From the IMG/VR virus record IMGVR_UViG_3300025470_000020: a DNA stretch of 20,000 nt, one strand, 5' to 3'. The notes beneath the pieces are model-generated. The model made no database searches and was not told the DNA's origin. It was given only the letters and a program-made list of their open reading frames with translations. A program made the position numbers and the translations under genes. Of the stretch, positions 1 to 20,000 are shown one piece after another. This DNA is from an uncultured virus (IMG/VR IMGVR_UViG_3300025470_000020) (taxonomy: Duplodnaviria; Heunggongvirae; Uroviricota; Caudoviricetes). Position 1 is the stretch's first letter. Every line of letters begins with the position of its first letter.

Positions 1-351
1 ACAAATACTATTCTTGGTTAATGGTTTATCTGGATAAGTCCAAATATAACCTTTAGAAGTTAAAGTGAAGTTATCTTCTTGATGCCAAAAGAAATTTAAT
101 TTTGAATCGGCACCCAATACATATAGAGCATCTAAATTTTTTGCGTGAATCCAAAATCTAGAATCTTCTAAAAAACTATATTCAACTTTGTATGTTGGAC
201 TATCATGGCCAAGATACCATTGATTATCTACAAACCAAACATCAACTTCAACATCAAATCCTTTAATTAAAGCTTGATTGATTTGAGTAGGACTATTTTC
301 TTTATCTTTATCTGGACCATCAAAAAGACCACGATGTGCAATATATTTCAT
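1..351 (-). CDS. Glycerophosphodiester phosphodiesterase (GDPD/PLC-like) domain protein, 3' end outside window
   Basis: Not in the ORF track. Manual translation from ATG at 351 (ATGA overlap with the upstream stop at 348-350) gives MKYIAHRGLFDGPDKDKENSPTQINQALIKGFDVEVDVWFVDNQWYLGHD...FWIHAKN...FFWHQED, open to base 1. IAHRG, EN(S/T), G-D-vE-D-v and HD are GDPD signature motifs. Confidence 0.8.
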   Translation of the reverse strand, partial: MKYIAHRGLFDGPDKDKENSPTQINQALIKGFDVEVDVWFVDNQWYLGHDSPTYKVEYSFLEDSRFWIHAKNLDALYVLGADSKLNFFWHQEDNFTLTSKGYIWTYPDKPLTKNSIC

Positions 352-1049
352 TTTATAATATAAGCGGTTGGCGCTTTAATACCGGTTGTATGTAATGTTA
401 GACCCATTTCTTTAATAAAATCATCTGCACCATTCGATTCACTCCAACTATGATAAGCATATTCATCAAATACAATTACTCCGCCAGTTACAATATTATT
501 CCAAAATGTTTTGAGTGCTGCATATGTTGGTTTATCTAGGTCCATATCCAAATACAATATACTGATTCTTAAACCTGGTTTTTCTTCTACTGTATTTTGT
601 GAGGTTTCAATGATATCACCTTTAATCAACTCAAACTTTGATGAATCAAAACCAGCATTAATAATTTTATTTTGAATTCCTTCATACGAAACATCATCTA
701 CAATTAAATTTTTATCTCTTGTAAAAACTTGCTTCATTGTATCTTTATCTACACCAGTTTTCATATCATCAACAAAACTTGGATCAAAAAAATCATAACC
801 CATTACTTTCTTGATACTATTAGGTTCGTTCATGGCCAATATTTTTAACCATGCCAAGATTCCTGAACCTTTGAAAACTCCACACTCAACAATATCGCCA
901 GGTAGATGTTTTGTCATTTCATAGAAATACATTTTACTGTATAACTTATTAAACACAACTCTATCATTACTAAACATAAAGTTATTGTAACTGTCATACA
1001 TATTTTGATTTTTTTGGATATCGGAATTGTCGTTGTATAGATTTGTCAT
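348..1049 (-). CDS. TylF/NovP/MycF family sugar O-methyltransferase
   Basis: Motifs PGDIVECGVFKGSG, GYDFF, LIKGDIIET, ILYLDMDL and GGVIVFDEY match the macrocin O-methyltransferase family. Confidence 0.85.
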   Translation of the reverse strand: MTNLYNDNSDIQKNQNMYDSYNNFMFSNDRVVFNKLYSKMYFYEMTKHLPGDIVECGVFKGSGILAWLKILAMNEPNSIKKVMGYDFFDPSFVDDMKTGVDKDTMKQVFTRDKNLIVDDVSYEGIQNKIINAGFDSSKFELIKGDIIETSQNTVEEKPGLRISILYLDMDLDKPTYAALKTFWNNIVTGGVIVFDEYAYHSWSESNGADDFIKEMGLTLHTTGIKAPTAYIIK

Positions 1050-1759
1050 AGCACTAGTTCTGTTCCATTCTTTCTTAATAGATGTTTAATTGAATTACGG
1101 ACCAATTTGGTTATATTATTATGTTTAAGTGCGTTTTGTAATATGCCATGTGGAGGACATAGATGACTATCTTCGTAGATAGGATTATAAAACTCATTAA
1201 ACATAAAATCGGACATCTTAATCATGTTATCTCTTGAAGTGAAAAAGAATTGGTCACCAGGTAAAGCATCAGCTGGGCTAGTACCGTGATGATAACCCAT
1301 TTCATTTTCTTGAATATCTAATATAATAGGTTCGTCTTGATACACCAAATCAAATCGAGTGCGGACTAAAATATCATACTTAAAATTGTTTTGGTTCTCG
1401 TAATGTTGAACCATTTCTGTTGCAATTTTAAACTTACGATATTGACCATACGACTGATAAGCATTTTCTGGTATGTTCAATTTAATTTCTCGCAGTTCAT
1501 TCTTAATTATTTCGTCTACTTGAGAAAATTGTTCAATGTTTGCCAATTTAACATTTACGTCAGATAATCCTTCAATCCATGTCTGTTCGGTAATAAGTTC
1601 ATCTTGTGTATCAGTCACACCCCATCCTCTAGGATGATATCCATATCGTAAATCGTATGAACAAATAAATGTATCAATATCTCCAAATTGTTTTAGAAAA
1701 CTTGGCTTTGTTTCGTTCCAAGTTCTATAATTTCCAACAATCATTACCGCTGTTTTCAT
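1046..1759 (-). CDS. Putative glycan-modifying/glycosyltransferase-like protein (YD...RxRxD type)
   Basis: Start revised to ATG 1759 (MKTAVMIVGNYRTW, ATGA overlap with the upstream stop). Contains Q-Y..K...YENQNNFKYDILVRTRFDL and D-FF, a pattern seen in uncharacterised proteins of polysaccharide clusters. Function is inferred from context. Confidence 0.5.
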   Translation of the reverse strand: MKTAVMIVGNYRTWNETKPSFLKQFGDIDTFICSYDLRYGYHPRGWGVTDTQDELITEQTWIEGLSDVNVKLANIEQFSQVDEIIKNELREIKLNIPENAYQSYGQYRKFKIATEMVQHYENQNNFKYDILVRTRFDLVYQDEPIILDIQENEMGYHHGTSPADALPGDQFFFTSRDNMIKMSDFMFNEFYNPIYEDSHLCPPHGILQNALKHNNITKLVRNSIKHLLRKNGTELVL

Positions 1760-3135
1760 TTGTAATGCTCCAAAAAGTAATTTAAATCTTCTGGAGTACC
1801 AATACCCCACATTTTCTTAATATTTTTAACACGAATCTTTTTGCCATCACCAATAGCTTCATTGAATACAGGACAAACATAAAATTCATTATTAGTGCGA
1901 ATATTCTTTTCAATCATCTGTTCTGCATACTTAACATAGTCAGAACCTTTTTTCCAATAATAGATACCAACTGTTGCCATATTAGAAATAGGTTTCTTCT
2001 CTGCAACTTCAGATACAAAACCATCTTCACCTAACTTAGCATAAGACCATTTAGGATGAGTGGCTTCAAAAGTAATAATGCCTCCATCGATAGAATCAGC
2101 AGTAAAGGCATATAAACATTCATTTGAATTCCATTCAACAAACTGGTCAGAGTTTGCCATCAATAGAGGTTCGTCACTATTAATTAATTCTTTAGCTAGT
2201 AACGTGGTACATGCAGCGCCTTCGGTCAAACCATCAACTTGTATAATATCACAACCGGGCGCAATCAAATTTAAAACTGATTGTAAATTATATTTCTCGT
2301 AATGTTCTTTTTGGCAAATAAAAATAAAATGTGCATCTACATTTAGATTATCCACTACAACTTGAATCATTGGTTTACCTTTGACTTCAATCAATGGTTT
2401 AGGGAAAGTATAACCTGCTGAAGCAAATCTACTACCGGCACCTGCCATAGGAATCAATACATTCATCTTCTTATTTCTCCAAGGTATGGATTTTATACGA
2501 CCACTATCTTCAAATTCTTCAATATAGCTTAAAAAATCTTCCACATTCAAATCATAAGCATCTTTTACTGGATACAAATGTGCACCAGAGTTAAATGCGC
2601 CTTCACGGCCAATATGTGAATCTTCCACAATGATAGTATCTTTAGGTAGAGCTTTCATCATTGTCATACATTTCCAATACATTTCAGGAAATGGTTTTGG
2701 ATTAAACACATCTTCGTTGCTTACATAATAATCAACATAATTTAAAATATCCATACATAATAAAGATGTCTTTACTGTTTCACGAATACTGTTGGACGCT
2801 ACTGCAATCTTCCATCCTTTAGAATTCAGATTATGCATTATTTTAAGAATATCAGGATTCTTTGGTGCTGTATGAATTAAATCAAATGTTTGTTTTTGTT
2901 TTTCTTTCCAAATTTCATCATACCAATCAATATGCAAACCTTTTTCTTGAGTAAGCATCTGTAATTTTTTTGTAGTGTTTAGTCCGTCATATTTTGATAA
3001 ATGTTCTTCACGGGTAATAATATAGTTGTATGAATCGGTTACTGTATGTATAGCACGATTGAGAGCTTCATAATGTAGCTCTCTACTGTCCATTAAAACA
3101 CCATCAAGGTCAAATATAACTAACTTTACTGCCAT
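1756..3135 (-). CDS. Fusion of HAD-family phosphatase (N-terminal) and sugar-phosphate nucleotidyltransferase (BcbE-like, C-terminal)
   Basis: HAD motifs IFDLDGVL, ASNS, KPFP and VEDS-IG. NTP-transferase motifs LIPMAGAGSRF...PKPLIEV, ANSDQ, EKKPIS, NNEFYV and GIGTPEDL. Start revised to ATG 3135 (MAVKLVIF), preceded by AGAAGGA. Confidence 0.9.
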   Translation of the reverse strand: MAVKLVIFDLDGVLMDSRELHYEALNRAIHTVTDSYNYIITREEHLSKYDGLNTTKKLQMLTQEKGLHIDWYDEIWKEKQKQTFDLIHTAPKNPDILKIMHNLNSKGWKIAVASNSIRETVKTSLLCMDILNYVDYYVSNEDVFNPKPFPEMYWKCMTMMKALPKDTIIVEDSHIGREGAFNSGAHLYPVKDAYDLNVEDFLSYIEEFEDSGRIKSIPWRNKKMNVLIPMAGAGSRFASAGYTFPKPLIEVKGKPMIQVVVDNLNVDAHFIFICQKEHYEKYNLQSVLNLIAPGCDIIQVDGLTEGAACTTLLAKELINSDEPLLMANSDQFVEWNSNECLYAFTADSIDGGIITFEATHPKWSYAKLGEDGFVSEVAEKKPISNMATVGIYYWKKGSDYVKYAEQMIEKNIRTNNEFYVCPVFNEAIGDGKKIRVKNIKKMWGIGTPEDLNYFLEHYK

Positions 3136-3836
3136 GTTGTTCCTTCTAAATCTAGCCAATACTTAACTATTTTACCTTTGCCTTCTAAAAGATAGAATGG
3201 TAAACAATGCATTAAACCCCGACCAGAATTATAGTATAACAGATTTGCTGGTGCTCTGTCAAGCGACCAAGCAAAATGGCTAGTACCTGTGTCACCACCA
3301 ATGAATGTTTCGGCAGTCATAATGTGGTATAAATTTTGGTCAAAATTGGTAGAGTATCTCCAGCCTTCAAACTCACAGGCTTTGGCAAAATGGTCATGCA
3401 CACAAATTACCTTTTCATAATCCTTATATTCATTCGTTGAATACTTTGCAATAATTTCCTCAAAGACGTGGCGAGGCCAATTACGATATACATTATATGG
3501 AGCATCAAAGATTGGACAAACTACAATCTTCTTTTGCATAGGTTCATTATTTGGTATAATAACATTGTCACCAATGATATCACGGAAATCCCAAAGATTG
3601 ACTCTTCGCCACGCTAATTCTTTATCACCAGGTTCAGTAGAAAAATAATCTGTATTCTTTAACATAAACTGGTAAAACTTCTGCACATAATCGGCAGAAT
3701 TAACTGAGCCTTGTTTCATATGAAACTTAATTTCTGGTGTTTGTTTTCTTAAATGTGCTATAACATTTGCAACACCAATTAAATCACCATTACGAAGTGG
3801 ACCACCAAACACTCCTTCAATAATATTGATAATCAC
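3126..3836 (-). CDS. GT9-like (ADP-heptose:LPS heptosyltransferase-like) glycosyltransferase
   Basis: N-terminal RNGDLI, central RNWP and C-terminal FIGGDTGTSHFAWSL match the GT9 pattern GD...K/R-W...D(S/T)G..H.A. GTG start overlaps the upstream TGA. Confidence 0.65.
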   Translation of the reverse strand: MIINIIEGVFGGPLRNGDLIGVANVIAHLRKQTPEIKFHMKQGSVNSADYVQKFYQFMLKNTDYFSTEPGDKELAWRRVNLWDFRDIIGDNVIIPNNEPMQKKIVVCPIFDAPYNVYRNWPRHVFEEIIAKYSTNEYKDYEKVICVHDHFAKACEFEGWRYSTNFDQNLYHIMTAETFIGGDTGTSHFAWSLDRAPANLLYYNSGRGLMHCLPFYLLEGKGKIVKYWLDLEGTTWQ

Positions 3837-4576
3837 AATAAACTTTCTAATTCATTATTATGCACTAGTTTAGATTTACGGTCCAAATAGAAATGTTTTT
3901 TAAATACTTGATTAATATCTTTACCATTATCCCAATAACAATTATCACCTTTTCTGAATTCAGGATTCCAATCTTCTGCTTTCCATACAACATAAGAGGA
4001 AACATTTAATAAGTCTGCAAGAACGGCCACACCAGTAAAATTAGTAATGAAAGGTTTCTTTAGATTTTTAATGATGTATGCGTTAGTCAATAATGAATTT
4101 TCATACGATAAGAATTTAAAATCTTTTAAATGAGATAGAACAGCAGTTGCTCTTCTATCATCTGTGCCTGGTGCATCCCATCGGTCACCACAGTAATAAG
4201 CATCTTCAATTTCAATATCTAATTCAGGTACTTTAATTTCTACATCATCATCAACTTCAAATTCTAAATTAGGATAGTTATCTCTCAACCAGTTTTCATA
4301 ACGACAAGTTTCAATTGGTCGATTTGGATTACTTTGTTCTTCTCTAGTCCAAGAACTGAGGTTAATGATACTGCCATACACAAAAACATCACTATCAAAC
4401 TCAACTGAAGAAAAGATATCTTGATAATTCAAAAACTCTTTGATACCTTTAAATTTATTCAAATCTCTTTTAACAATGAGGTCAAATTTTCCATATTGTT
4501 TATAAAGACCAGACAAAACAGGAAAGCCATTTAAAAAATCACCTAAGTTGGCAGTTGAGCTAAGATATACTTGCAT
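3833..4576 (-). CDS. Divergent GT9-like glycosyltransferase
   Basis: N-terminal NLGDFLNGFPVLSGLYK resembles the GT9 start (lGD.l...P.l..L). FITNFTGVAVLADLL resembles a degenerate DSG..H.A motif. Confidence 0.5.
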   Translation of the reverse strand: MQVYLSSTANLGDFLNGFPVLSGLYKQYGKFDLIVKRDLNKFKGIKEFLNYQDIFSSVEFDSDVFVYGSIINLSSWTREEQSNPNRPIETCRYENWLRDNYPNLEFEVDDDVEIKVPELDIEIEDAYYCGDRWDAPGTDDRRATAVLSHLKDFKFLSYENSLLTNAYIIKNLKKPFITNFTGVAVLADLLNVSSYVVWKAEDWNPEFRKGDNCYWDNGKDINQVFKKHFYLDRKSKLVHNNELESLL

Positions 4577-4578
4577 GA

Positions 4579-5202
4579 TTATCTCTTTTTTGCAATAATA
4601 GTTAAAATGTTTGGAAGGTATGAAACCGGTTTACGAATTTCATCCTCATGATTACAGATATACATTGGTATGAATCCTGCTTTGTCTATCAATGTAATTA
4701 ATCCATGAGAATCAAAATGATGGAAGTGTTCATTTTCTTTACGGTGTTTCCATGTTCTAAACCATTCAGCACCCATTCTTTCGTGCATCCATGGTAATGA
4801 TATCATAACATATTTTGTGTTAATTGAACCGAGAAACTCATGGATATTTGGAGAAGGAATATGTTCAATAGAATCAAAGAATGTAATGACATCAACTTCA
4901 ACATCTTTGACATTAGCCACAAACTCCACATCATTTGGGAGAGGATAGTTTGATATATCATGTCCAAAACATTTCTTACCATTCATGTGAGCATACTTCA
5001 GAAATGCTCCATCACCATAACCAAAGTCACATATAGAATCAAACTTAACATATTTTGAAAGTAAATCAAAACGTAATTTGGACATACTAAAGTCCATTTT
5101 AGTATAATACTGCATATAGTTAGTATCATACTTCATAATTTCACCGGTAGGTTTACTTTGAAACCAATGTCCAGGTTCTATCAATTCATAATTATCAATC
5201 AT
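4579..5202 (-). CDS. Class I SAM-dependent methyltransferase
   Basis: Motif I ICDFGYGDGAFL, GHDIS, DVITFFDSIEHIP, and EHFHHFD. Start revised to ATG 5202 (MIDNYELI), 1 nt after the upstream stop. Confidence 0.85.
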   Translation of the reverse strand: MIDNYELIEPGHWFQSKPTGEIMKYDTNYMQYYTKMDFSMSKLRFDLLSKYVKFDSICDFGYGDGAFLKYAHMNGKKCFGHDISNYPLPNDVEFVANVKDVEVDVITFFDSIEHIPSPNIHEFLGSINTKYVMISLPWMHERMGAEWFRTWKHRKENEHFHHFDSHGLITLIDKAGFIPMYICNHEDEIRKPVSYLPNILTIIAKKR

Positions 5203-5203
5203 A

Positions 5204-6019
5204 TTAAACTTTATTATTAAATTTATTAAACAATACAAATGGATCGTGACCAAGCTGATGGTCAGGAATCTGATGCAATTCAAATACCTTAGGTTCATTT
5301 ATATATGACTGTAGCCATAGACCTTGGTCATCATCAACTAAACCTTTTTCTTGTAAATCAACAAAAGATTGTGTCATTAGGTCGGACATTTTTTGCCACA
5401 TATCTTTATGAGCCACCACTTTTGCACCCAAGATATAAACATCATTATTAAGAACAGCGTGGTCTATTGGTTTATCATCATATGGTTTGTAATTGAATAG
5501 GTGAATTTTTGTTTCATCAAAATCATATTCCCATATTTTACTAGCAGGAATATTATTTTCACTACGGCAATAACCAAAATCAATCCATGCAACCATATCA
5601 TTTTGTGTATAATTATATTTGACAGCCATATTTGCAAAGTATGCTTTCAGATTAGTCACAAGAACATAATCAGGATTCCAATATTCTGGATTTCTTACTT
5701 GTTGAGGATTAACTTTCTTTTGGAATTCAGGATCTTTTTGAACATTAATGATTAAATCTCTCATATTAGAAAAATGACTATTCACATCAATTGGAATAAT
5801 TTTTGTTGTGTCTAAACGGTCTTTACATATATCAATTACCTTATGTTTTAAATCATCTGACGTGAAAACAGTAATGTCATTTTCCAATTTGCATAGATTA
5901 CTAAATCTTTCTAGATAAGTATCAGTTGTTCTATGCAAATAATGCGGTAGTCCTTTATCTGGTGTCCATTCACCACGACCAATATCAAAGAAAGCCGTTA
6001 CTATTGAAATTTTACTCAT
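5204..6019 (-). CDS. HtrL/YibB (WlaTC) family protein
   Basis: ISIVTAFFDIGRG.W, R...TYLERF..L..LEN, PEYWNPDYVLV..LK.YF, AWIDFGYCR and VDDDQG are characteristic of the HtrL family found in LPS/LOS loci. Confidence 0.85.
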   Translation of the reverse strand: MSKISIVTAFFDIGRGEWTPDKGLPHYLHRTTDTYLERFSNLCKLENDITVFTSDDLKHKVIDICKDRLDTTKIIPIDVNSHFSNMRDLIINVQKDPEFQKKVNPQQVRNPEYWNPDYVLVTNLKAYFANMAVKYNYTQNDMVAWIDFGYCRSENNIPASKIWEYDFDETKIHLFNYKPYDDKPIDHAVLNNDVYILGAKVVAHKDMWQKMSDLMTQSFVDLQEKGLVDDDQGLWLQSYINEPKVFELHQIPDHQLGHDPFVLFNKFNNKV

Positions 6020-6861
6020 TATGCAGTCCTGTAAACAAACATCTGTGATTCATCATCTTGTCCATATGTTACACGAACAAACTCTTTCCATTGTGGAACT
6101 CTATCATATTGATGAACAATAGCAAATGGTTTATCTTTGTAATACACGATACCATCTTTTACTGTTGGTTCATCACATAATAAATTTGGTCTAAATCTGT
6201 TAATCTTTGAAGGGTCAGCAACTGTGCCGGCTTCACAAGCCCAATCGACTGTCTTAAAAACTATATCTTTAAATGGTTGTGTATTGATTAACACATTGAA
6301 TACTGCTTGGTCGACAATTGGAATAGGTCTATTAACTCCGTTGGTGAAAATATGAAACACCATATCTTTTACATATTCTGCTTGACCACCAAATGTTCCA
6401 ACATTAAAGATTTCTTTATCTTTGAATAATTCATAAACATATGGACCGTATGCTTGTTTGAGATTTTCATCACCCCAAGATTCATCTTCATATTTTAATC
6501 CTTCTGAAGCAATAACAAGTTTATGGTTTCCACTTTCAATAAAATCAATTGGGTTTGTTTGAAAGTAAACATCTTTGACATCTGTTGTTACGACATATCT
6601 ATAATTCGTCCATGTTGCTTGTAGATAATCATAGATGGCTAAAAATCTTGCTACATGAATAGGAACATTATCTAAATCCGGCATAGGGATTAATATAAAG
6701 TTTCTTTTTTCTAATTCTATTATTGTATTATTATCAGTTTTACCAACAACTAAAATTTTATCGCCTGTAAAACCACACTTATCAATTGATTCACACCAAG
6801 GTTTTAATTGATTGTAGTTATAGTTTGTAAATGCACCAATGATTAAATCTTTTTGCGCCAT
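6019..6861 (-). CDS. Putative GT-A fold glycosyltransferase (nucleotide-diphospho-sugar transferase)
   Basis: RF..Y, TTDVKDVYFQ.NP (DxxD), N.GTFGG, DQAVFN and IVHQYDR motifs. Confidence 0.7.
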   Translation of the reverse strand: MAQKDLIIGAFTNYNYNQLKPWCESIDKCGFTGDKILVVGKTDNNTIIELEKRNFILIPMPDLDNVPIHVARFLAIYDYLQATWTNYRYVVTTDVKDVYFQTNPIDFIESGNHKLVIASEGLKYEDESWGDENLKQAYGPYVYELFKDKEIFNVGTFGGQAEYVKDMVFHIFTNGVNRPIPIVDQAVFNVLINTQPFKDIVFKTVDWACEAGTVADPSKINRFRPNLLCDEPTVKDGIVYYKDKPFAIVHQYDRVPQWKEFVRVTYGQDDESQMFVYRTA

Positions 6862-7559
6862 GGGAAATCTCCATTATATTTGTTTGTCATAATATTATTA
6901 CCGTATTCAAAGAATTCTTTCTTTACTGAACCTGCATTACCATCAACTTGATATTTTACTGTATACTCACCTGTGCAATCAAATTTAGGAAAGTGTTGTG
7001 CCATAGCTTGAAAGAATATTCTATCTTGACCCCAACCGCCATGCCATGCTGATGCTATTTTTGTTGCTACACTTGTTTTGATACAATAACAATTAGTATC
7101 TATGTGATTATAATCTCCACTAAAAACAGGCCATTTACCTAGTGATTCACAATCATCTCGACATGAATAATTTCCATCTTTGTCATAGATTTCTCGTAAT
7201 GAGTATGACCAGTCTAGGTCTTTTTCTTTAATAGTATCGATACAAGATTTAACGTGATTAGGTTTTAATGATACATCTTGGTCAAGATATAATACATATT
7301 CTGTATCTATTAGATGACTGAATGCAGCATAGACTCGATGGCCATAGAAACCATTGGCACCAACATTGATTGGTAAATAACAAACTTTTAGATTTTTGTT
7401 ACCAAGATAATCACTTACAATAACACTAGATGGACCTTTAAATTCTTGACCATCAATTACAACATAAACTGTTGTTGGGTAAGTTTGATTTAAAGCAGAT
7501 TCAATAGCATTCCTACAAACAGGATTACCTGTTATAGGTATAATCACGGTAGCACTCAT
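6843..7559 (-). CDS. Glycosyltransferase family 2
   Basis: TVIIP, AIESALNQTY, VVIDG, YVLYLDQD (DxD), IDTNCY and GQDR are canonical GT2 motifs. Confidence 0.88.
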   Translation of the reverse strand: MSATVIIPITGNPVCRNAIESALNQTYPTTVYVVIDGQEFKGPSSVIVSDYLGNKNLKVCYLPINVGANGFYGHRVYAAFSHLIDTEYVLYLDQDVSLKPNHVKSCIDTIKEKDLDWSYSLREIYDKDGNYSCRDDCESLGKWPVFSGDYNHIDTNCYCIKTSVATKIASAWHGGWGQDRIFFQAMAQHFPKFDCTGEYTVKYQVDGNAGSVKKEFFEYGNNIMTNKYNGDFPWRKKI

Positions 7560-7561
7560 AA

Positions 7562-7840
7562 TTAATCTCTAGTTAGTTTTAAAATTCGTTCTATTTGTTT
7601 CTCTATGATAGGTGTTCTGTTAGGCCAATATATGTATTCTTTATCGCCTGTAGAATGGAGTTTTGTAAGGAAAGGAATAATAATTTTTTCAACTTCATTC
7701 AATCTTGCTTTATAATCATCTGCTGTTTGTGCTGTATTCTTTATGACAGAATTATATTCTTCTTCTGATACTGCTGAAAATCCATAATCATTATCAGATT
7801 CATATTGTTTTGCTAACTTATCAAAATCAATTAATGCCAT
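7562..7840 (-). CDS. Hypothetical phage protein (92 aa)
   Basis: Clean ORF coupled to the upstream gene by TAATG. Contains DYGFSAVSEEE and IIPFL.KL....KEYIYWPNR. No function recognisable. Confidence 0.75.
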   Translation of the reverse strand: MALIDFDKLAKQYESDNDYGFSAVSEEEYNSVIKNTAQTADDYKARLNEVEKIIIPFLTKLHSTGDKEYIYWPNRTPIIEKQIERILKLTRD

Positions 7841-8292
7841 TATTTGTTTATCTCTATTTTAATATCATGTAGTAAATTATATAGGTCTAATAAATCCACG
7901 ATGGAACTAAAGTTATTACGGAAGAATTTAGTAATCTCATTCTTTTCATATTCACGATTTCTTTTTGTTGATGGTTCTTTAGCATCAAGTATTCTATGAT
8001 TTAAATCTTCTCTAATTCTATCTAACAACTTTACGCCTTCAGCCTTAGTGTCATTTATCTTACCTTCAGGTAAAATCTTTTTAAAGTAATCTCTATATCT
8101 TTCTGTAACAGAAATTTGATTGATAACGCCAGGCGGAATGTCTTCTAATTTCTTTTTAGCAATTCTTAATGCTCGACTAACATCAGGCAAATCTTCTTTT
8201 TTCTTTTCGATATAAGCCTCGACAATTTTAAATGCCTGTTCTACGCCTTTTTGGCCATGGTAAACTGAATGTTGTATATCGTCTAGTGTCAT
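7840..8292 (-). CDS. Hypothetical helical protein, possibly a shortened DUF6267-like protein
   Basis: The ORF fits exactly between its neighbours. The N-terminus (G..GV.QA) and C-terminus (K..STK..R...K....KFF..N...I..L..LYN.L...K..I) recall the two ends of a longer family of T4-like phage proteins. The family assignment is from memory and is weak. Confidence 0.55.
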   Translation of the reverse strand: MTLDDIQHSVYHGQKGVEQAFKIVEAYIEKKKEDLPDVSRALRIAKKKLEDIPPGVINQISVTERYRDYFKKILPEGKINDTKAEGVKLLDRIREDLNHRILDAKEPSTKRNREYEKNEITKFFRNNFSSIVDLLDLYNLLHDIKIEINK

Positions 8293-9550: not shown

Positions 9551-9558
9551 TATTTATC
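9551..9558 (-). promoter_or_regulatory. Possible variant T4-type late promoter (GATAAATA)
   Basis: Minus strand reads taGATAAATAaggcttATG, a 7/8 match to TATAAATA ending 6 nt before the ATG at 9544. It overlaps the upstream stop codon and could be chance in AT-rich DNA. Confidence 0.3.
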
Positions 9559-10666
9559 TAATAATTTGTATGTCTTTACCAGATGTCCAAACTTCGAGTT
9601 CTGTTCTTAATCGACCTTCCGCTTTCAATGTATCATAACGATTAGATGCCTTATTCTTCCACCAAGCAATAATATTGTTTAATTCATGCTTTTCGTAGTT
9701 TTCACCAGGTATTAATGTATCTGCTTTGCCATTGACAAAATCAACCATATTCTTAAAACCATAGTCTGAAACAAAATATCTTTTCTTTTCTGTTAGACTT
9801 TTAGCATTCTCAATCGTCTTCAAGAATGTATCACCTTCTGGTGTTCCTTTTAATGCAGCTTTAGTCATAGCAATAATCTTGGTAAATGTTCTTAACTTTC
9901 TACTAGTAGATGATTCTTCACCTTCTAATATGTCACCAACTTTGCTTTCAACAAAAGTCTTTAAGTCATTATATCTTTCACCGTGCATCATTGGTACAAC
10001 ATCCGAATCAGTTAAACCTTTAAATCGAATGAATGGTTTCATACCGTCATATTGAGATACCGCTTTACTACTACCATAAAGACTGGTAGTTTCAAATAGA
10101 CACAGATTCATACCATATTTTTTATTACATATCTCTCTAACGGTATGTGATGTGCAAATGGCAGCTAGTAATTTACCACCTAGATAATTGAAACCAAATG
10201 GTTGAGATGGAACAATCACAAAACCCATAATACTGCTGTCATTAAAGAGTTTAGCACCCTCCGTTGTTTGCGAGAACACTTGTCCTAGCATTTCATTTCT
10301 TGGTCTCATATAAATGACTGGAGAACCTAAACGAATGAATCCTAGTATCTTTCCTGTGTTTTTCTCTCTAACTGCCAATTGTATATTTCTGCCAACTGGT
10401 GCTTTATTAACATGAGATGATGTTATTGCCAAAAGTGTTTCCCATGTTTCATTTGGTAATTCACAAACTTCGATATCCATATCATTTGGATGCATAGAAA
10501 AGTCTGAAAACAAATCATCTTCTGGCGGAAATAAAGATGATGGAATACTTTCTACATGCTTTAGTTTTTCATCTCTCATGTATTGTTCTATATTCTCAAA
10601 ATTATCGAAGTAATCTTGGAACACTTTAGAACAATGTAAAGCATCTTCTCTATGTAAACTTATCAT
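9554..10666 (-). CDS. DUF4338 / Druantia DruA-like protein
   Basis: PVGRNI...V.EK.TGKILGFI.LGSP....PRN, VP.QPFG.NYLGGKLLA and ETTSLYG...SQYDG resemble DUF4338/DruA motifs (PPYN.LLGGKLVA; TTSLYG.SSQYN). ATGA overlap with the gp41 stop. Confidence 0.7.
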   Translation of the reverse strand: MISLHREDALHCSKVFQDYFDNFENIEQYMRDEKLKHVESIPSSLFPPEDDLFSDFSMHPNDMDIEVCELPNETWETLLAITSSHVNKAPVGRNIQLAVREKNTGKILGFIRLGSPVIYMRPRNEMLGQVFSQTTEGAKLFNDSSIMGFVIVPSQPFGFNYLGGKLLAAICTSHTVREICNKKYGMNLCLFETTSLYGSSKAVSQYDGMKPFIRFKGLTDSDVVPMMHGERYNDLKTFVESKVGDILEGEESSTSRKLRTFTKIIAMTKAALKGTPEGDTFLKTIENAKSLTEKKRYFVSDYGFKNMVDFVNGKADTLIPGENYEKHELNNIIAWWKNKASNRYDTLKAEGRLRTELEVWTSGKDIQIIR

Positions 10667-14729: not shown

Positions 14730-17257
14730 GAGAAGAAATCCTCCAAAGTGTTAATCTTTTCTGTTGTCCAACCCATACAATCAAGAATGATTTTAATTGG
14801 CTCTATGAATGCTTTTTCAAATTGCATATCATAATCAATATAATCATGTAAATTTAATTCTTTAGGTAATCTGCTAGGATAGGATATAACAGTATCCTTA
14901 AAGTGATTAGGCATTTTCAAATAAGCAAACTTTATCTTTTCGCCTTCTTGTATGAGATTGTATTTTTTTGTTAGTTTATTTTGTTTAATAAAGTTATTAT
15001 ATAAGATTGCTCCCTTTACATGAATCGGTGTTCCTGATTTATATAAAGTCACAGCATCAGAGTATTTATTTAAACCATTGATGCCACGAGGAAAAGAAAT
15101 CTCTTCTGGTGGTAACTTTTTGAAATCTTCTTTAAACTTTTTAATAAACTCATGTATATCGTTTTCAGAGCCAATCATCATAAGTTTAATTGCTTCTGCC
15201 ATCTTTGTTCTAATGGCAGATGGTGTTGATGACTTAATCATCTCAAGACCCATGACTTTCATCTTTGGTTCTTTATAAGCAACACCTTCGTTATTAAACA
15301 CATTGAGAATGTATCGTTTCTTAGCAGTCCAAATACCTTTGTTAGCCAACGCTTCTCGTTTCATTTGCATCTTTTGGGAATATGCCTTGAGATAATCTGC
15401 TAGTTCGCCATAAGACTTATCAATGTATGGCTGAATCTTATCTTCACAGATTTTATCCATGAATTGAATAGTTTGTTCAATCGACTTATCTTTACAGAAT
15501 TTATCAACGATAGGACCAAGTTTAAGATAAATTGAATCTGTATCTGAAGCAATAACATAATCTGTTTCAGTTTGTAATAACTTGTTCATATAGTCATTGA
15601 GTTTGTTTTCAATCCAACGAATTGCTAATTGACCAGATGTTGTTACTCCCAAAGCCATGCGTAAATCGTAGAATCTAAAATACTGACTACCAAGAGCACC
15701 GTAAGCACTATTAAGAGAAACTTTCTTAGCAAGTTGAAGATTATCGTATCTTGCAATTCGTTTTTCAATTTCATACTTTTTCGTGTCATCTGTTTCGTCT
15801 TCATAATCTTGTTTCGCCTTTAACATTAATTTTTTAAATTTCTTTCTATCTTCATACATTTCTTCCATCATCTTTGGTAAGAAACCCATCATATCAGTTC
15901 TAAAGAATTGACCATTTGGAGTAAGTGTTGCGTTTTGGAGTTTTGATGTATCAATCTTTTTATATAATAACTTATCAACATTAACACCTTGAGATAACAC
16001 TTCTCTCATCTCATCTGTATAATCTTCTGGATCAATAAGTGTTTCAGGTGAGATATTGAATTGCATCATGAGGTGGGGGTAGAGTGAATTTAGGTCAAAG
16101 CTGGCGATATAATCATGCTTGCCTACTTGTGGGTCTTTTACATATGCGCCTTCAAATGCTGAATCTTTATCTTTAACAACTTTAGGTGGAACAATGATGT
16201 TCTTTTCAAGCAAATAAGAATATGTTAATGAATCCCACATTCTAGTTTGTGCAAAGATATCATCATAGTTTGATTTTGTATCATATGCCAAAGTTAAACC
16301 AAGTTCAATGAGTTTTAATTTGTCTTCCAATGAAACAATAAGTTCTACGTCTTTGATATTATATTCAATAAACTTTTGATGGTTCATTTTGTATAAATCA
16401 TGTAGAGAATCATATTCATCATATGATATCTTTTCTTCACCAAGTTCAACTGATGCAATAGAATTAAGTTTATAGGATTCTTGTGACTTGCCACCAGGAG
16501 CATACCATCTGTATAGTTCAATGTAGTCTAAAGAAGAAACACCAAGAATATCATAGGCAATCATCTGACGATTGTTCACAACAGTTTTTCTTTCACCAAT
16601 ATAATTCCATGGAGAAAGTTTCTTTGCCTCATCTTCACCAAGTATTCTTCTAAATCGATTGATGATGTATGGTATATCAAAGAATTTTGTATTCCATCCA
16701 GTTACGATATCTGGACATTTTCTTGTCCATAGTTCCATAAATCTTTTACACAATGTATATTCATCACGGCATTTAACATAGATTTCTTTACCTTGAGTTT
16801 CATATGCACCAAGACCAAAGACATACATTTCGCCATTGAGATACTTAACAGCAATAGCAATAATAGGTTCATTTGCTTCGTATGGGTCTGGGAAACCATT
16901 TTCAGAACCAACTTCAATATCGATTACTGCAATTGATATCTTATCTTGGTCCCATTCAACCATACCTTTGTGTTGGTCGGCAATAAACGCATACTCATAT
17001 TTTGTATTACCATATATTTTAGGACCATTTGACACACCATCGAATTGTTTGATATAATCTCTAGCGTCTTTCATGGTACCAAATACTTTTTGGTCGAGGT
17101 AATCACCTTCAAGTGTTGTGAAGTTTGTTATACGTTTGGATGGAACAAAAAGAGATGGAGAATATTCAATTCTCTGTTTTACTCTTTTGCCATCCATAAC
17201 ACCTCGATAGAGAATGTTATTGCCAAAACTTTGAACATTAGTGTAAAAGTTACTCAT
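14726..17257 (-). CDS. 43: T4-like family B DNA polymerase gp43
   Basis: ExoI DIEV, ExoII GWNTKFFDIPY, ExoIII YNIKDV. Polymerase motifs SFDLNSLYP, KVSLNSAYGALG, ASDTDS and KKRY, with C-terminal clamp-binding LEDFF. Uninterrupted. Confidence 0.98.
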   Translation of the reverse strand: MSNFYTNVQSFGNNILYRGVMDGKRVKQRIEYSPSLFVPSKRITNFTTLEGDYLDQKVFGTMKDARDYIKQFDGVSNGPKIYGNTKYEYAFIADQHKGMVEWDQDKISIAVIDIEVGSENGFPDPYEANEPIIAIAVKYLNGEMYVFGLGAYETQGKEIYVKCRDEYTLCKRFMELWTRKCPDIVTGWNTKFFDIPYIINRFRRILGEDEAKKLSPWNYIGERKTVVNNRQMIAYDILGVSSLDYIELYRWYAPGGKSQESYKLNSIASVELGEEKISYDEYDSLHDLYKMNHQKFIEYNIKDVELIVSLEDKLKLIELGLTLAYDTKSNYDDIFAQTRMWDSLTYSYLLEKNIIVPPKVVKDKDSAFEGAYVKDPQVGKHDYIASFDLNSLYPHLMMQFNISPETLIDPEDYTDEMREVLSQGVNVDKLLYKKIDTSKLQNATLTPNGQFFRTDMMGFLPKMMEEMYEDRKKFKKLMLKAKQDYEDETDDTKKYEIEKRIARYDNLQLAKKVSLNSAYGALGSQYFRFYDLRMALGVTTSGQLAIRWIENKLNDYMNKLLQTETDYVIASDTDSIYLKLGPIVDKFCKDKSIEQTIQFMDKICEDKIQPYIDKSYGELADYLKAYSQKMQMKREALANKGIWTAKKRYILNVFNNEGVAYKEPKMKVMGLEMIKSSTPSAIRTKMAEAIKLMMIGSENDIHEFIKKFKEDFKKLPPEEISFPRGINGLNKYSDAVTLYKSGTPIHVKGAILYNNFIKQNKLTKKYNLIQEGEKIKFAYLKMPNHFKDTVISYPSRLPKELNLHDYIDYDMQFEKAFIEPIKIILDCMGWTTEKINTLEDFFS

Positions 17258-17568
17258 TATCCTGTGATGATTTTCTTTTGTGGTGGAACAACTAAACCTG
17301 CCCCAAATATTTGTTTATAGTTTGTGATAAAGTCTTCTGCTGGAACATAGTTATATACTACGTTTCTTTTACTTAAAATGACTGTGGCATCTTTCTTTTG
17401 TTCTGCATGGAGTGGAAAAGGCGAAAAACCTACGTTTGGTTTACCATCTTGTCCTCGAACAATTGAAATACCTACTGGATTTAAAACAACGAATTCTGTT
17501 TCAGACTGACTTTCTACTTCGCCTAAAACGTCTTCACCTGTGATTAATTTGAATGCAATTACTTCCAT
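17257..17568 (-). CDS. Conserved small phage protein upstream of gp43 (possible Sm-like beta fold)
   Basis: KLITGEDVLG...NPV...GFSPF...Y.QIFGAGLVVP. AGGAG RBS at 17575-17579 and TAATG coupling to gp43. The fold is an inference. Confidence 0.75.
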   Translation of the reverse strand: MEVIAFKLITGEDVLGEVESQSETEFVVLNPVGISIVRGQDGKPNVGFSPFPLHAEQKKDATVILSKRNVVYNYVPAEDFITNYKQIFGAGLVVPPQKKIITG

Positions 17569-17584
17569 TTGACTCTCCTAGTTA

Positions 17585-17592
17585 TATAAATA
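17585..17592 (+). promoter_or_regulatory. T4-type late promoter TATAAATA (gp55-dependent)
   Basis: Exact TATAAATA in the only sizeable intergenic region, 45 nt upstream of the first plus-strand ATG (17638). Confidence 0.8.
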
Positions 17593-17602
17593 CTTATCAA
17601 GG

Positions 17603-17631
17603 ATTATACAATAATCATTCATGAATGTCAA
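17603..17631 (-). promoter_or_regulatory. Perfect sigma70 consensus promoter (early) for the replication operon
   Basis: Minus strand reads TTGACA (17631-17626), a 17 nt spacer, then TATAAT (17608-17603), followed by AGGAG and ATG 17568. Confidence 0.9.
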
Positions 17632-17637
17632 GTTAAT

Positions 17638-17916
17638 ATGGATATATTTAAGTTAATTGCCGATTTGGGTTTTCCAATAGCCGCTGCTTGTGCTGGTGGT
17701 TATTTCATCTTTTTAACTGTAAAGTTTATCCTCGCAGGAGTTCTCTCAAGAGTCAAGGGCTTAAATGGTATAATTATAGCTTTGGACAATAGAGTTAAAA
17801 CCATGAATCATGATATTATTAGAATTGATACTTTAATGTCTAACGCTTTAAAAGTTCGTCCTGATTTGGATCGTATTGCTAGAGCAGATGGCAAAAACGA
17901 CGCTAGAAAGGATTAA
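17638..17916 (+). CDS. Small single-pass membrane protein with coiled coil (GFPI type, YvrJ-like), paralogue 1
   Basis: LIADLGFPIAAACAGGYFIF hydrophobic segment, then IIALDNRVKTMNHDIIRID, and a charged C-terminus. Confidence 0.75.
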   Translation: MDIFKLIADLGFPIAAACAGGYFIFLTVKFILAGVLSRVKGLNGIIIALDNRVKTMNHDIIRIDTLMSNALKVRPDLDRIARADGKNDARKD

Positions 17917-17917
17917 A

Positions 17918-18703
17918 ATGATTAAAGTAATGCCTTTTCCAAAACAAGCTCATTTATTTGCTGTATTAAGCAATTTAGCATATTCGGATCCATTCGATTC
18001 AAAACCCAAATTTGATGAGTTAGGTTTTAGAAGTGAGTTCTTTGATTGCAATGGAAGTCAAGCTTATTTATTGACTAATGATGAAGATGCAATCGTTGTT
18101 TGCCGAGGCACACAACCAACTGATTGGAGAGATTTAGCGGCAGATTTAGAAGCTAATCCTGTTCCAAGTTCAACAGGCAAAGGTTTAGTTCATTATGGTT
18201 TTAAACATAGTGTAGATAATATTTGGCCAACATTAGAACCAATGTTAAAAGAATTAGGTAAGAAAAGAACCATCTGGTGTACCGGTCATAGTTTAGGTGC
18301 AGCGATGGCAACTATTGTAGCTTATAAACTACAAAGAGATGAAAATTTACCAAGTGCTCAAGCATTATTTACTTATGGAAGTCCAAGAGTTGGAACACAT
18401 GAGTATATTGAAGGCATTACAAACACAGGTGTATTACATTTTAGATTTGTAAACAATACAGATATGGTTCCTCGTGTTCCTGTTTGGCCTTATAAACATT
18501 TTGGTGGAATGTATTACATGAACCATTGGGGCAATTTGAGAAGTTTTAGTGGATGGCAATTGACTAAAGATGTATGGCGTGGCTTTATCAGAGGTGTTAA
18601 AAATAAAAAATTCAGTTTACTTGATAACCATGCTATAGGTCATTATGTTTTAAATCTATATGATTGGTCTCAAGGTGTTGAGCATCCACAGGATAAAATT
18701 TAA
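17918..18703 (+). CDS. Lipase class 3 (alpha/beta hydrolase)
   Basis: VVCRGT, VHYGF, nucleophile elbow TGHSLGAAMA, TYGSPRVG, RFVNNTDMVPRVP and DNHAI, giving a complete Ser-Asp-His triad. Start revised to ATG 17918 after AAGGA. Confidence 0.93.
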   Translation: MIKVMPFPKQAHLFAVLSNLAYSDPFDSKPKFDELGFRSEFFDCNGSQAYLLTNDEDAIVVCRGTQPTDWRDLAADLEANPVPSSTGKGLVHYGFKHSVDNIWPTLEPMLKELGKKRTIWCTGHSLGAAMATIVAYKLQRDENLPSAQALFTYGSPRVGTHEYIEGITNTGVLHFRFVNNTDMVPRVPVWPYKHFGGMYYMNHWGNLRSFSGWQLTKDVWRGFIRGVKNKKFSLLDNHAIGHYVLNLYDWSQGVEHPQDKI

Positions 18704-18984
18704 TGGAAGAATTAGCAGATTTAATTAGTAAATATGGATTTCCTATTATCGCTGCTTGCGGTATGGGTTATCTTATTTTTTATGTTTGGAAGTGGGCAAC
18801 AGAAGAAACAGAACCAGTATTAAATGAAACTGAAAAGATAGTGATTGCTTTGATTGACCGTATTAGAATGCTAGATAATGATTTGATTAGATTAAATCAA
18901 AAACTTAATGTAGTATTAATGATGCGAGAAATTAAAGATGAAGAAAACAATAAGAATTCTCATACTGACGATACTGTCAAGTAG
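18703..18984 (+). CDS. Small single-pass membrane protein with coiled coil (GFPI type, YvrJ-like), paralogue 2
   Basis: LISKYGFPIIAACGMGYLIF and VIALIDRIRMLDNDLIRLN align directly with 17638..17916. TAATG coupling to the lipase. Confidence 0.75.
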   Translation: MEELADLISKYGFPIIAACGMGYLIFYVWKWATEETEPVLNETEKIVIALIDRIRMLDNDLIRLNQKLNVVLMMREIKDEENNKNSHTDDTVK

Positions 18985-19378
18985 CGCATATGCAGAACAG
19001 ACGTTTCAATTTAAATCTCCTTCTTTTTCAGGTATAGGATACTCTTCTCACGTTCAAACAATAGAGAATACTGAATACACTCGTAAACAAGCAATTTATG
19101 CGGCCAAAAAACAAGCTGCAATTGATGCTGCTACAGCTGCAGGTAATACTATATTAGCCAAGTTCTTGACTAACTTTGAGAGCAGAGTCTATGCTCAACT
19201 ATCTACACAATTAATTAATAATCTGTTTGGTGAAAATCCACAAAATAGTGGAACTGTTACCATTGAAGGCAATACTATTACATACACTAAAACAGCTGAC
19301 ATGATTAACATGACTGTTAAGGATCAAAATGGTAATGTAACACAAGTTAGTATTCCTATTGGAACTTTAAGTTTCTAA
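18938..19378 (+). CDS. csgF: Curli assembly/transport component CsgF homologue
   Basis: Signal peptide ending in AYA, mature N-terminus FQFKSPSFSG (compare CsgF F.NP.FGG), F..NFESRVYAQLS.QL, G..TIEG and a terminal beta-rich region. Lies immediately upstream of csgG. Confidence 0.8.
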   Translation: MKKTIRILILTILSSSAYAEQTFQFKSPSFSGIGYSSHVQTIENTEYTRKQAIYAAKKQAAIDAATAAGNTILAKFLTNFESRVYAQLSTQLINNLFGENPQNSGTVTIEGNTITYTKTADMINMTVKDQNGNVTQVSIPIGTLSF

Positions 19379-19379
19379 T

Positions 19380-20000
19380 ATGAAAAAAATATTAATAGCA
19401 CTTATGTGTATAACAATAATTGGCTGCACACCGCCAATGAATGTTATTAAAAAAGAACCAGAAATTATGCCAATGAAATGGGCTAGAGCTCCATTACCTG
19501 AACCTGCTAAAGGTAAAGTAGTTGTAGCTGTTTATAGTTTTGCTGATAAAACTGGTCAAAGAAAAGATTCTGCTACAATTGCTAAATTATCATCAGCTGT
19601 AACACAAGGCGGTGAAACAGTATTATTAAAATCATTAGAAGATGCTGGTGATGGAAAATGGTTTAGAATAGTAGAACGAGTTGGTATAGACAACTTATTA
19701 AAAGAAAGACAACTAATTCGTTCAGCAAGAGATGAAGCAAGAGATCCTTCTGGAATCAGACCTATGTTGTATGCAGGTATGATTATTGAAGGCGGAATTA
19801 TAAGTTATGATACAAATATAAGAACAGGTGGTATTGGTGTTCGTTGGTTAGGAATTGGACCAGACACACAATATCAAGAAGATGTGGTGACTGTAAGTAT
19901 TAGAGCAATTAGCACACAAACAGGTGAAGTGCTATTAACAGTAAACGCTCAAAAAACCATATTGAGTTATACAGCAGGTGTAGCTATATTTAAGTTTTTT
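19380..20000 (+). CDS. csgG: Curli secretion channel CsgG homologue (outer-membrane lipoprotein), 3' end outside window
   Basis: Not in the ORF track. Manual translation: MKKILIALMCITIIGC (lipobox) ...PLPEPAKGKVVVAVYSFADKTGQRK...SSAVTQGG...KWFRIVERVGIDNLLKERQLIRSAR...EGGIISYDTNIRTGGIGVRWLGIG...YQEDVVTVSIRAISTQTGEVLLTV...KTILS. These are classic CsgG motifs, and the frame is open to the window end. Confidence 0.93.
   Translation, partial: MKKILIALMCITIIGCTPPMNVIKKEPEIMPMKWARAPLPEPAKGKVVVAVYSFADKTGQRKDSATIAKLSSAVTQGGETVLLKSLEDAGDGKWFRIVERVGIDNLLKERQLIRSARDEARDPSGIRPMLYAGMIIEGGIISYDTNIRTGGIGVRWLGIGPDTQYQEDVVTVSIRAISTQTGEVLLTVNAQKTILSYTAGVAIFKFF

Follow-up and report, generated by a model that had tools for sequence, protein, structure and literature searches.

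The 20,000-nucleotide stretch analysed here (the window), taken from the uncultured virus record IMGVR_UViG_3300025470_000020, ends in five tightly packed genes behind a T4-type late-promoter motif: a small transmembrane (TM) protein, a class-3 lipase, a second small TM protein, and homologues of the curli secretion proteins CsgF and CsgG. We wanted to know whether such a cluster serves lysis or secretion. An earlier note on this DNA had read the genes as a candidate lysis or envelope-remodelling system with one component per envelope task, and had itself named a downstream set of curli-like substrates as a sign of secretion rather than lysis. When the record is read onward past the window edge, a curlin-repeat protein and a FecR-domain protein follow csgG, and we therefore favour secretion over lysis. 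Our reading, to which as a whole we give a probability of about 0.6, is that the five window genes make up the first half of a late unit of ten genes and ~6.9 kb, which runs from 17585 to ~24440 and thus extends 4.4 kb past the window. Its core would be a curli-secretion module with a sensor cyclase, and the lipase would be lineage-specific cargo carried at the level of strains.

The window corresponds to the reverse strand of a virus record of 72,584 bases with an estimated completeness of 44%, and coordinates above 20000 ("window scale") refer to the same record read onward past the window edge. The source runs of the phage are labelled freshwater, none of the runs listed for this stretch is an RNA run, its DNA polymerase shares ~51% identity at most with that of any cultured phage, and a megablast search of 17257-20000 against cultured phages gave no match. 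The phage is an uncultured T4-like myophage from freshwater metagenomes. The proteins of the record were scanned with Pfam (88 proteins) and PHROGs (58 of these); two genes spanning locus boundaries and open reading frames of less than 50 amino acids were left out. The features of the unit are as follows (numbers preceded by L are our locus handles).

17585..17592, + strand: T4-type late-promoter motif TATAAATA, 46 nt 5' of the ATG of TM1
17603..17631, - strand: perfect sigma-70 consensus (TTGACA, 17 nt, TATAAT; 12/12 consensus positions), corresponding to L004:19865-19893 (+)
17638..17916, + strand: TM1, 92 amino acids, phrog_18771 at 7.9e-34
17918..18703, + strand: class-3 lipase, 261 amino acids, Lipase_3 at 6.8e-27
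18703..18984, + strand: TM2, 93 amino acids, phrog_18771 at 4.9e-32
18938..19378, + strand: CsgF, 146 amino acids, PF10614 at 1.4e-16 and phrog_35372 at 1.5e-42
19380..20162, + strand (the window edge is at 20000): CsgG lipoprotein, 260 amino acids when whole, PF03783 at 1.4e-43
20152-20859 (window scale), + strand: curlin-repeat protein with a signal peptide, 235 amino acids, Curlin_rpt
20783-21847 (window scale), + strand: FecR-domain protein, FecR at 5.8e-8
Beyond the window, between the FecR gene and the gene for the 82-amino-acid protein, + strand: lipoprotein, 118 amino acids, from the record read onward
Beyond the window, between the gene for the 118-amino-acid lipoprotein and the cyclase gene, + strand: small protein, 82 amino acids, from the record read onward
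22383-24440 (window scale), L004:13059-15113 (-): CHASE2 nucleotide cyclase, 685 amino acids, CHASE2 at 2.8e-36 and Guanylate_cyc at 1.3e-20

These coordinates, together with the Pfam and PHROG matches, bear out the earlier description of an exact late motif followed by five tightly packed genes. The lipase gene starts 1 nt past the end of TM1 and has the sequence AAGGA 8 nt 5' of its ATG; TM2 overlaps the lipase gene by 1 nt, CsgF overlaps TM2 by 47 nt, and 1 nt separates CsgF from CsgG. After the cyclase the genes switch strand. A terminator scan inside the unit gave matches only in coding membrane segments, which were taken as spurious.

The earlier note had also raised the possibility of an assembly chimera at about 17600. 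Contigs of four other runs bridge 17026-18870, three of them (X5, X6 and X7) with 0 differences and one (X14) with 74, and in strain L008, which is 95-97% identical, the gene order from the DNA polymerase to the cyclase is unchanged. Because the bridging contigs from other runs and the gene order of L008 agree, the junction is real and a chimera is excluded.

The evidence that carries the secretion reading lies in CsgF, CsgG and the protein encoded behind them. CsgF matches PF10614 with 61.3 bits (cut-off 25.8) over profile positions 7-132 of 132, and its N-terminus, MKKTIRILILTILSSSAYA, is signal-peptide-like; by sequence, it gave only chance-level matches to solved CsgF chains. CsgG matches PF03783 with 167.2 bits (cut-off 20.8) when all 260 amino acids are considered, and its residues 4-257 align with residues 6-258 of E. 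coli CsgG (3x2r_D) at an E-value of 2.6e-44. Read by eye, its N-terminus, MKKILIALMCITIIGC, contains a lipobox IIGC at residues 13-16 and a hydrophobic segment at 4-22. The score against the NCBIfam equivalog PRK15184 was 162 (cut-off 505). The protein encoded next matches Curlin_rpt in 3 stretches with 24.7 bits (cut-off 20.7) and contains five Q-x-G-x(1-2)-N repeats. Its AlphaFold 2 (AF2) model has 16 short strands at a predicted local distance difference test (pLDDT) score of 83.1. When this model was compared with 48,161 solved chains by VIA-align, the best match was CsgA (8c50_A; Z 18.3, 186 residues, 23% identity, root-mean-square deviation 8.6), and Foldseek gave no match in the PDB at E <= 1e-3. 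On the strength of the repeats and the model we assign it as a predicted CsgA-like, Sec-exported β-solenoid subunit. The earlier suggestion that a phage protein might be exported to the cell surface fits such a substrate, and the more general proposal that the cluster acts on the envelope is likewise supported.

In the mechanism that we propose, the late sigma factor would start transcription at TATAAATA, CsgG and CsgF would form an outer-membrane channel, and the curlin-like subunit would be exported and, late in infection, polymerise on the outside of the infected cell. A periplasmic cue sensed by FecR and the CHASE2 cyclase would be turned into a cyclic nucleotide. When 11 proteins of the cassette were run against the PADLOC defence models, only the cyclase domain was matched (Pycsar cyclase, PycC, 1.5e-26), as is expected for class III cyclases; this match, which we do not retain as a defence assignment, probably reflects common class III cyclase ancestry. 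A small secreted protein of 98-103 amino acids is encoded after the cyclase (L004:12759-13052, + strand; homologue at L012:5687-5995), and in L012, L085 and L100 its homologue separates TM1 from the lipase.

Is the unit likely to be transcribed late? The motif TATAAATA, which we take to be the T4 late-promoter consensus, occurs exactly once in the window, against a mean of 4.03 in dinucleotide shuffles. The whole 72.6-kb record contains 6 copies, and 4 of these lie in the ~5% of the DNA that is intergenic, each 30-62 nt 5' of a start on the same strand. An exact late motif is present within 100 nt 5' of TM1 in 12 of 17 related loci (7 of the 11 groups with distinct sequences), and although the flanks have otherwise diverged between loci, TATAAATACT has been retained 42-53 nt 5' of TM1. 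Moreover, a late sigma factor of the gp55 type (phrog_234 at 1.2e-63) is among the proteins of the record. As the motif is kept between loci, is underrepresented elsewhere and lies mostly between genes, and a gp55-type sigma factor is encoded, late transcription of the unit, as the earlier note proposed, is plausible and well motivated.

The sigma-70 consensus on the opposite strand points left, to a gene for 103 amino acids and the DNA polymerase gene, and shares a 69-nt spacer with the late motif. It is likely an early promoter, and the spacer looks like a divergent early/late promoter pair. A second TATAAATA lies within the 3' end of the FecR gene (L004:15732-15739, - strand; 21757 at window scale), 91 nt 5' of the gene for the 118-amino-acid lipoprotein, and may be an internal late promoter.

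We then considered how constant the unit is among related phages. At least 593 loci matched TM1, and the 80 best of them were surveyed. TM2 lies downstream of TM1 in 77 of the 80, and the 3 misses have less than 1 kb of downstream sequence. Where at least 4 kb past TM2 is available, the cyclase is present in 45/45 loci and CsgG in 37/45; with at least 8 kb, the counts are 31/31 for the cyclase, 30/31 for FecR and 28/31 for CsgG. The orientation varies. CsgF follows TM2 on the same strand in 25 of the 80 loci, the block from CsgF to the cyclase is convergent in 23, only an inverted cyclase is in reach in 25, and 7 were unassigned. As csgG was found in 48 of the 80 loci, the curli block lies on the strand opposite to TM1-TM2 in 23 of 48, and because of this the five genes are not an obligate operon. 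In the inverted arrangement, CsgF has its own exact TATAAATA in 6/15 loci and a one-base variant in most others. The TM pair is thus linked to the cyclase/curli module, and co-transcription is not obligatory.

TM1 and TM2 are paralogues, as the earlier note had said, with 32.9% identity over 73 amino acids (E 7e-10). TM1 is a predicted single-pass membrane protein with a conserved C-terminal helical tail (best 19-residue hydropathy 1.93, residues 14-32), and the best 17-residue hydropathy of TM2 is 1.75, at residues 12-28. The family is very large: TM1 homologues form 3651 clusters at E <= 0.001, with 784 representatives in a 50% library. All inspected members are of the TM1 or the TM2 type; the best 150 representatives, among which distant relatives in other contexts were sought, are all of these two types or frameshifted versions of them. 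Even with DNA polymerases of only 40-78% identity, loci have TM1 proteins that are 74-87% identical. In cultured phages, tblastn detected the family only in HTVC008M and Melnitz; it was not detected in cyanomyophages, the closest cultured relatives by DNA polymerase.

Searches for a function of the pair gave faint signals. TM1 belongs to no Pfam family, and Pfam gave no significant match for either protein, to holins or otherwise, with 0.005 as the best E-value for YvrJ. TM2 weakly matches phrog_4898, labelled 'holin' (1.1e-5), which TM1 does not, and this PHROG is matched by 25 of 117 family members, at best with 1e-7. The nearest named Atlas clusters, YvrJ (0.88) and Holin_BhlA/UviB (0.84), are below threshold and serve as leads only. 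A weak match of TM2 to NCBIfam GapS1 (18 bits, cut-off 320) was discarded; NCBIfam gave no match for TM1 or the lipase. A prediction of a TM1:TM2 complex, with each protein entered as an alignment, scored 0.01 against a mark of 0.32, which is uninformative either way. We therefore describe TM1 and TM2 as conserved, paralogous, predicted inner-membrane proteins whose likeness to holins and YvrJ is weak.

The interval between the two genes is the most variable part of the locus. In 34 loci TM1 and TM2 lie no more than 100 nt apart; the gap measures 100-300 nt in 17 loci and more than 300 nt in 26. The lipase occupies this slot in 8 of the 80 loci. Elsewhere the slot holds a DUF4337 membrane protein, a carbamoyltransferase, a DctP solute-binding protein, a secreted Endonuclease_NS, HNH/NUMOD3 homing endonucleases, an AdoMet decarboxylase, an EF-hand protein or small secreted proteins. 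The closest relatives of the phage, as judged by DNA polymerase and curli genes, have no insert and a TM1-TM2 gap of 3-6 nt; one of them, L096, has a polymerase of 77% identity, a CsgF of 84% and a gap of 6 nt. Contigs of four independent runs stop within the conserved core of TM2 (18840-18956), with loose ends at 18844, 18868 and 18903, and the summed depth there rises up to 61, compared with ~20. This is the pattern expected when co-occurring strains have the flanks in common and diverge in the interval; many such strains have the TM2 core in common and differ to either side of it. The TM1-TM2 gap is a hypervariable insertion slot and probably a recombination hot spot.

Two of the homing endonucleases in the slot are found at L064:9282-9785 and L081:5766-6374, and such enzymes may drive gene turnover there. 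In L031 the DNA polymerase is 74% identical but CsgF/CsgG only 42%, and in L012 the polymerase is 43% identical but CsgF and CsgG are 65% and 62%, and the lipase 63%. Together with L096, these mismatches between module and backbone point to exchange of the curli block between lineages.

The lipase itself appears to be intact. It matches Lipase_3 (PF01764) with 94.5 bits (cut-off 22), and the residues of the GHSLG motif (G123-H-S125-L-G127), D182 and H238 are invariant in 41/41 homologues of 46-100% identity; S125 and D182 align with the matching motifs of Rhizomucor lipase. At E <= 1e-5 there are 649 homologues, all of ~260 amino acids. The AF2 model is of good quality (pLDDT 87.1; predicted template modelling score 0.87), and Foldseek gave 72 PDB matches at E <= 1e-3, headed by class-3 lipases (Rhizomucor lipase) and feruloyl esterase A with template modelling scores of 0.62-0.64. 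The protein shows no signal peptide and no hydrophobic or membrane segment, and would therefore be made in the cytoplasm. A survey with the lipase as query gave 18 loci, several of them near-duplicates. In all 18 the lipase gene lies directly 3' of TM1, down to 59% identity; CsgF adjoins TM2 in 9, only an inverted cyclase is in reach in 8 (6 of these also have an S11 DD-peptidase), and 1 was unassigned. The peptidase, a secreted Peptidase_S11 (DD-carboxy/endopeptidase, 1.9e-41), is encoded at L013:7964-8746 (-) between TM2 and the inverted cyclase, in loci without adjacent CsgF/CsgG. Equivalents occur in L010, L019, L052, L059 and L103, often accompanied by the lipase.

Because the lipase is present in 8 of 80 loci, unrelated genes occupy the slot elsewhere, and the nearest relatives have no insert, we consider it, as part of our overall reading, to be an intact predicted cytoplasmic serine hydrolase outside the conserved module and cargo of the slot. 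It most likely would act late on host acyl lipids, by weakening membranes or by releasing fatty acids, independently of CsgF/CsgG.

Alternatively, the lipase might be an auxiliary metabolic enzyme, releasing fatty acids or altering host lipids for phage production, with no role in envelope breakdown and a position that is an accident of recombination. Cultured cyanomyophages have class-3 homologues whose surroundings are unrelated (P-SSM2), a 40%-identical copy occurs in L071 at another place and on the other strand, other metabolic genes have entered the slot, and the enzyme is predicted to be cytoplasmic. However, a late promoter is unusual for metabolic helper genes, and the place after TM1 is kept down to 59% identity. 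Nor can a substrate be read from the sequence or from the fold, the matches of which are lipases and a feruloyl esterase. We regard a purely metabolic role as very unlikely.

Returning to the secretion reading, several points weigh against it. CsgE (PF10627) was not found in the 72.6-kb, 44%-complete record, in a search in which the E. coli control was positive, and export may thus differ from the E. coli system. The CsgG residues at what we take to be the E. coli constriction positions (presumably Y, N and F, that is Tyr, Asn and Phe) are S, K and L, and the alignment has a gap in the loop. Late timing would fit a lysis-linked role at least as well as the production of fibres. Both TM2 and the 25 family members mentioned above match a 'holin' PHROG, and no other holin or spanin was found in the 44%-complete record. 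Finally, the fixed place of the lipase after TM1 could reflect functional coupling rather than a common insertion site.

The first two of these points would suit a CsgG pore, with or without CsgF, that acts as a lysis-timing device in the manner of a pinholin or a secretin, its opening triggering lysis: a gate of the CsgE type was not found, and the residues aligned with what we assume to be the constriction are unlike those of E. coli. Late motifs 5' of the unit, and 5' of CsgF in the inverted layouts, would suit it as well. On the other hand, the predicted CsgA-like substrate with its signal peptide lies directly downstream and is conserved across loci, and CsgG is a predicted outer-membrane lipoprotein; a channel lying in the outer membrane would be unable to depolarise the inner membrane. 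We therefore hold such a timer to be most improbable, although it has been published as a hypothesis (PMC9004378).

The remaining points concern the other three genes. TM1, the lipase and TM2 might form a lysis cassette, to which CsgF/CsgG are mere neighbours: a holin/antiholin-like pair would permeabilise the inner membrane and free or activate the signal-less lipase, which would degrade membrane lipids, the task that spanins perform at the outer membrane or LysB in mycobacteriophages. The late-promoter motif lies directly 5' of these genes, both TM proteins are small and single-pass, and the 'holin' PHROG and the Atlas leads agree with such a role. The catalytic triad of the lipase is intact and its signal peptide lacking, as in a cytoplasmic endolysin that awaits its holin, and its place immediately after TM1 in 18/18 loci and the failure to find another holin or spanin in the record fit as well. 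In the Melnitz paper (PMC9004378), no word begins with 'holin' and a single lysin-like gene is described.

However, 72 of the 80 loci with the TM pair lack the lipase, and the slot elsewhere holds unrelated genes such as those for the carbamoyltransferase, DctP, the AdoMet decarboxylase and the homing endonucleases. Holins usually diverge fast, whereas TM1 is more conserved than the polymerases of the same loci. The TM family is tied to the cyclase/curli module (45/45 loci; among cultured phages only HTVC008M and Melnitz) and Pfam offers no significant holin match. The scans revealed a single lysis gene, which encodes a GH19-type endolysin (phrog_181 at 3.6e-75; Glyco_hydro_19) at L025:7460-8065 and is ~27 kb off. 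A TM1-lipase-TM2 lysis cassette therefore seems unlikely to us. Its more specific form, a new Gram-negative lysis module in which the holin-like pair lets the cytoplasmic lipase reach envelope lipids and so replaces spanins, is distinctly unlikely; if it were true, the holin so far missing from pelagiphage and related T4-like lineages would be the TM pair of the lipase-free relatives.

The proposals of the earlier note thus fared differently. Its idea that a csgF/csgG cluster may serve lysis had already been published (PMC9004378), and the single integrated cassette with one component per envelope task is not supported: a substrate follows csgG, the block is inverted in 23 of 48 loci, the lipase is one of many inserts, and the endolysin is ~27 kb away. 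Its remark that a lipase in this operon had not been described stands, as our literature searches found no mention of a lipase with a phage CsgF/CsgG module; the word 'lipase' does not occur in PMC7029224, PMC9004378 and PMC9599517.

Elsewhere in the record, two paralogous DruA-like proteins (Druantia, PF14236; phrog_19197) are encoded at window positions 9554-10666 (-) and at L004:2500-3762 (+), with E-values of 4.3e-10 and 7.6e-21; a phage-borne pair of this kind was unexpected. At window positions 348-8292 (-) lies a run of genes of sugar or lipopolysaccharide type (TylF and other methyltransferases, a HAD-nucleotidyltransferase fusion, HtrL_YibB and a family 2 glycosyltransferase), which resembles the host-surface modification island of pelagimyophages.

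Many aquatic phages carry the curli module, for which both a fibre and a lysis reading exist. Our finding mostly re-identifies this published system, to which the present locus adds the module in a freshwater T4-like phage and conserved late-promoter motifs. It also adds that two of its small genes belong to a very large and unusually conserved membrane family flanking an insertion hot spot, where a cytoplasmic lipase with an intact triad is one of the genes inserted repeatedly. Should the small proteins be holins or partners of the cyclase, this would help to decide between a fibre and a lysis reading of the whole module.

The closest known systems are the type VIII secretion modules of pelagiphages and their relatives, which comprise HTVC008M, Melnitz and uncultured myo- and podophages (PMC7029224, PMC9599517). 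According to PMC7029224, the phage CsgF/CsgG operon includes 'two hypothetical proteins' of equal size, and the freshwater SAR11 phages of that study are without the curli operon. In PMC9599517 the complete viral module comprises CsgA/B, FecR and an adenylate cyclase, and one or two 'histidine kinases', which might correspond to TM1/TM2, are said to lie ahead of it. For TM1 and TM2 the kinase label is unfit, because 92-93 amino acids are too short for a kinase core; kinase domains (HisKA, HATPase) gave no Pfam match even at E <= 10 in 14 TM1/TM2 sequences. HTVC008M and Melnitz have the same set as our phage, namely two TM genes of ~93 amino acids, CsgF, CsgG, a curlin-repeat protein, FecR and the CHASE2 cyclase, without the lipase. 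Melnitz has the gene order of the window, and in HTVC008M the curlin-repeat match comes after FecR. Compared with our phage, TM1 of these two phages is 55-59% identical, CsgG 41% and the cyclase 38%. The pelagiphage module likewise lacks CsgE, as stated in PMC7029224 and PMC9599517, and it differs from ours in that the present phage has a class-3 lipase between the two small genes and a freshwater source. As for podophage versions of the module, the three records checked are 28-35% complete, and one of these encodes a T4-type gp23.

For Melnitz, a Methylophilales phage, the CsgG/CsgF pore was proposed to be a lysis timer, either pinholin or secretin, which is the same idea as that of the earlier note, a phage pore repurposed for the control of lysis. 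PMC9004378 states that csgA/csgB are lacking in Melnitz and treats the curli set as incomplete, whereas the Melnitz record itself annotates curlin-repeat proteins, so that there, as here, a curlin-repeat substrate follows csgG. That paper says nothing of a lipase, nor does it consider the two small membrane proteins as possible holins.

Compared with the E. coli curli system, the phage has a CsgG that aligns over its full length, a CsgF with a Pfam match, and a subunit whose best structural match is CsgA. E. coli has CsgE; in the phage record CsgE was not found, and FecR, the CHASE2 cyclase and two predicted inner-membrane proteins are attached instead. No CsgD-type regulator turned up in the family scans of the proteins of the record.

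For the TM pair, the nearest likeness is to phrog_4898, YvrJ (PF12841) and BhlA/UviB, which also have a short N-terminus, one membrane helix with a G-F-P motif and a helical tail; the matches are weak. Unlike these, the TM family is a conserved paralogous pair tied to the cyclase/curli module and does not stand beside an endolysin. We found no literature that joins YvrJ with holins.

For the lipase, the comparisons are more distant. The cyanomyophage P-SSM2 protein PSSM2_200 ('esterase/lipase') is of the Lipase_3 type and 36% identical over 38% of the query, but its gene is shorter (615 nt) and lies near a tRNA ligase gene among hypothetical genes, without the TM pair or curli genes. LysB of mycobacteriophages has a cutinase-like fold, as opposed to that of a class-3 lipase here. 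It is a lipolytic lysis enzyme encoded beside holin and endolysin genes (PMC6116114), and would be comparable if the phage lipase served lysis, the latter then being a late-expressed hydrolase of lipid esters whose gene adjoins those of small membrane proteins. LysB also acts on another type of host envelope, and the phage lipase has no adjacent endolysin and is absent from most relatives.

Taken together, these comparisons identify the core of the locus, by gene content and sequence matches, as the published phage type VIII secretion (curli) module. The presence of CsgF/CsgG in phages and the lysis idea attached to them were already known; what the present locus adds is the insertion of the lipase, a T4-like phage from freshwater as carrier of the module, the evidence on the promoter, and a description of the TM pair with its hypervariable slot.

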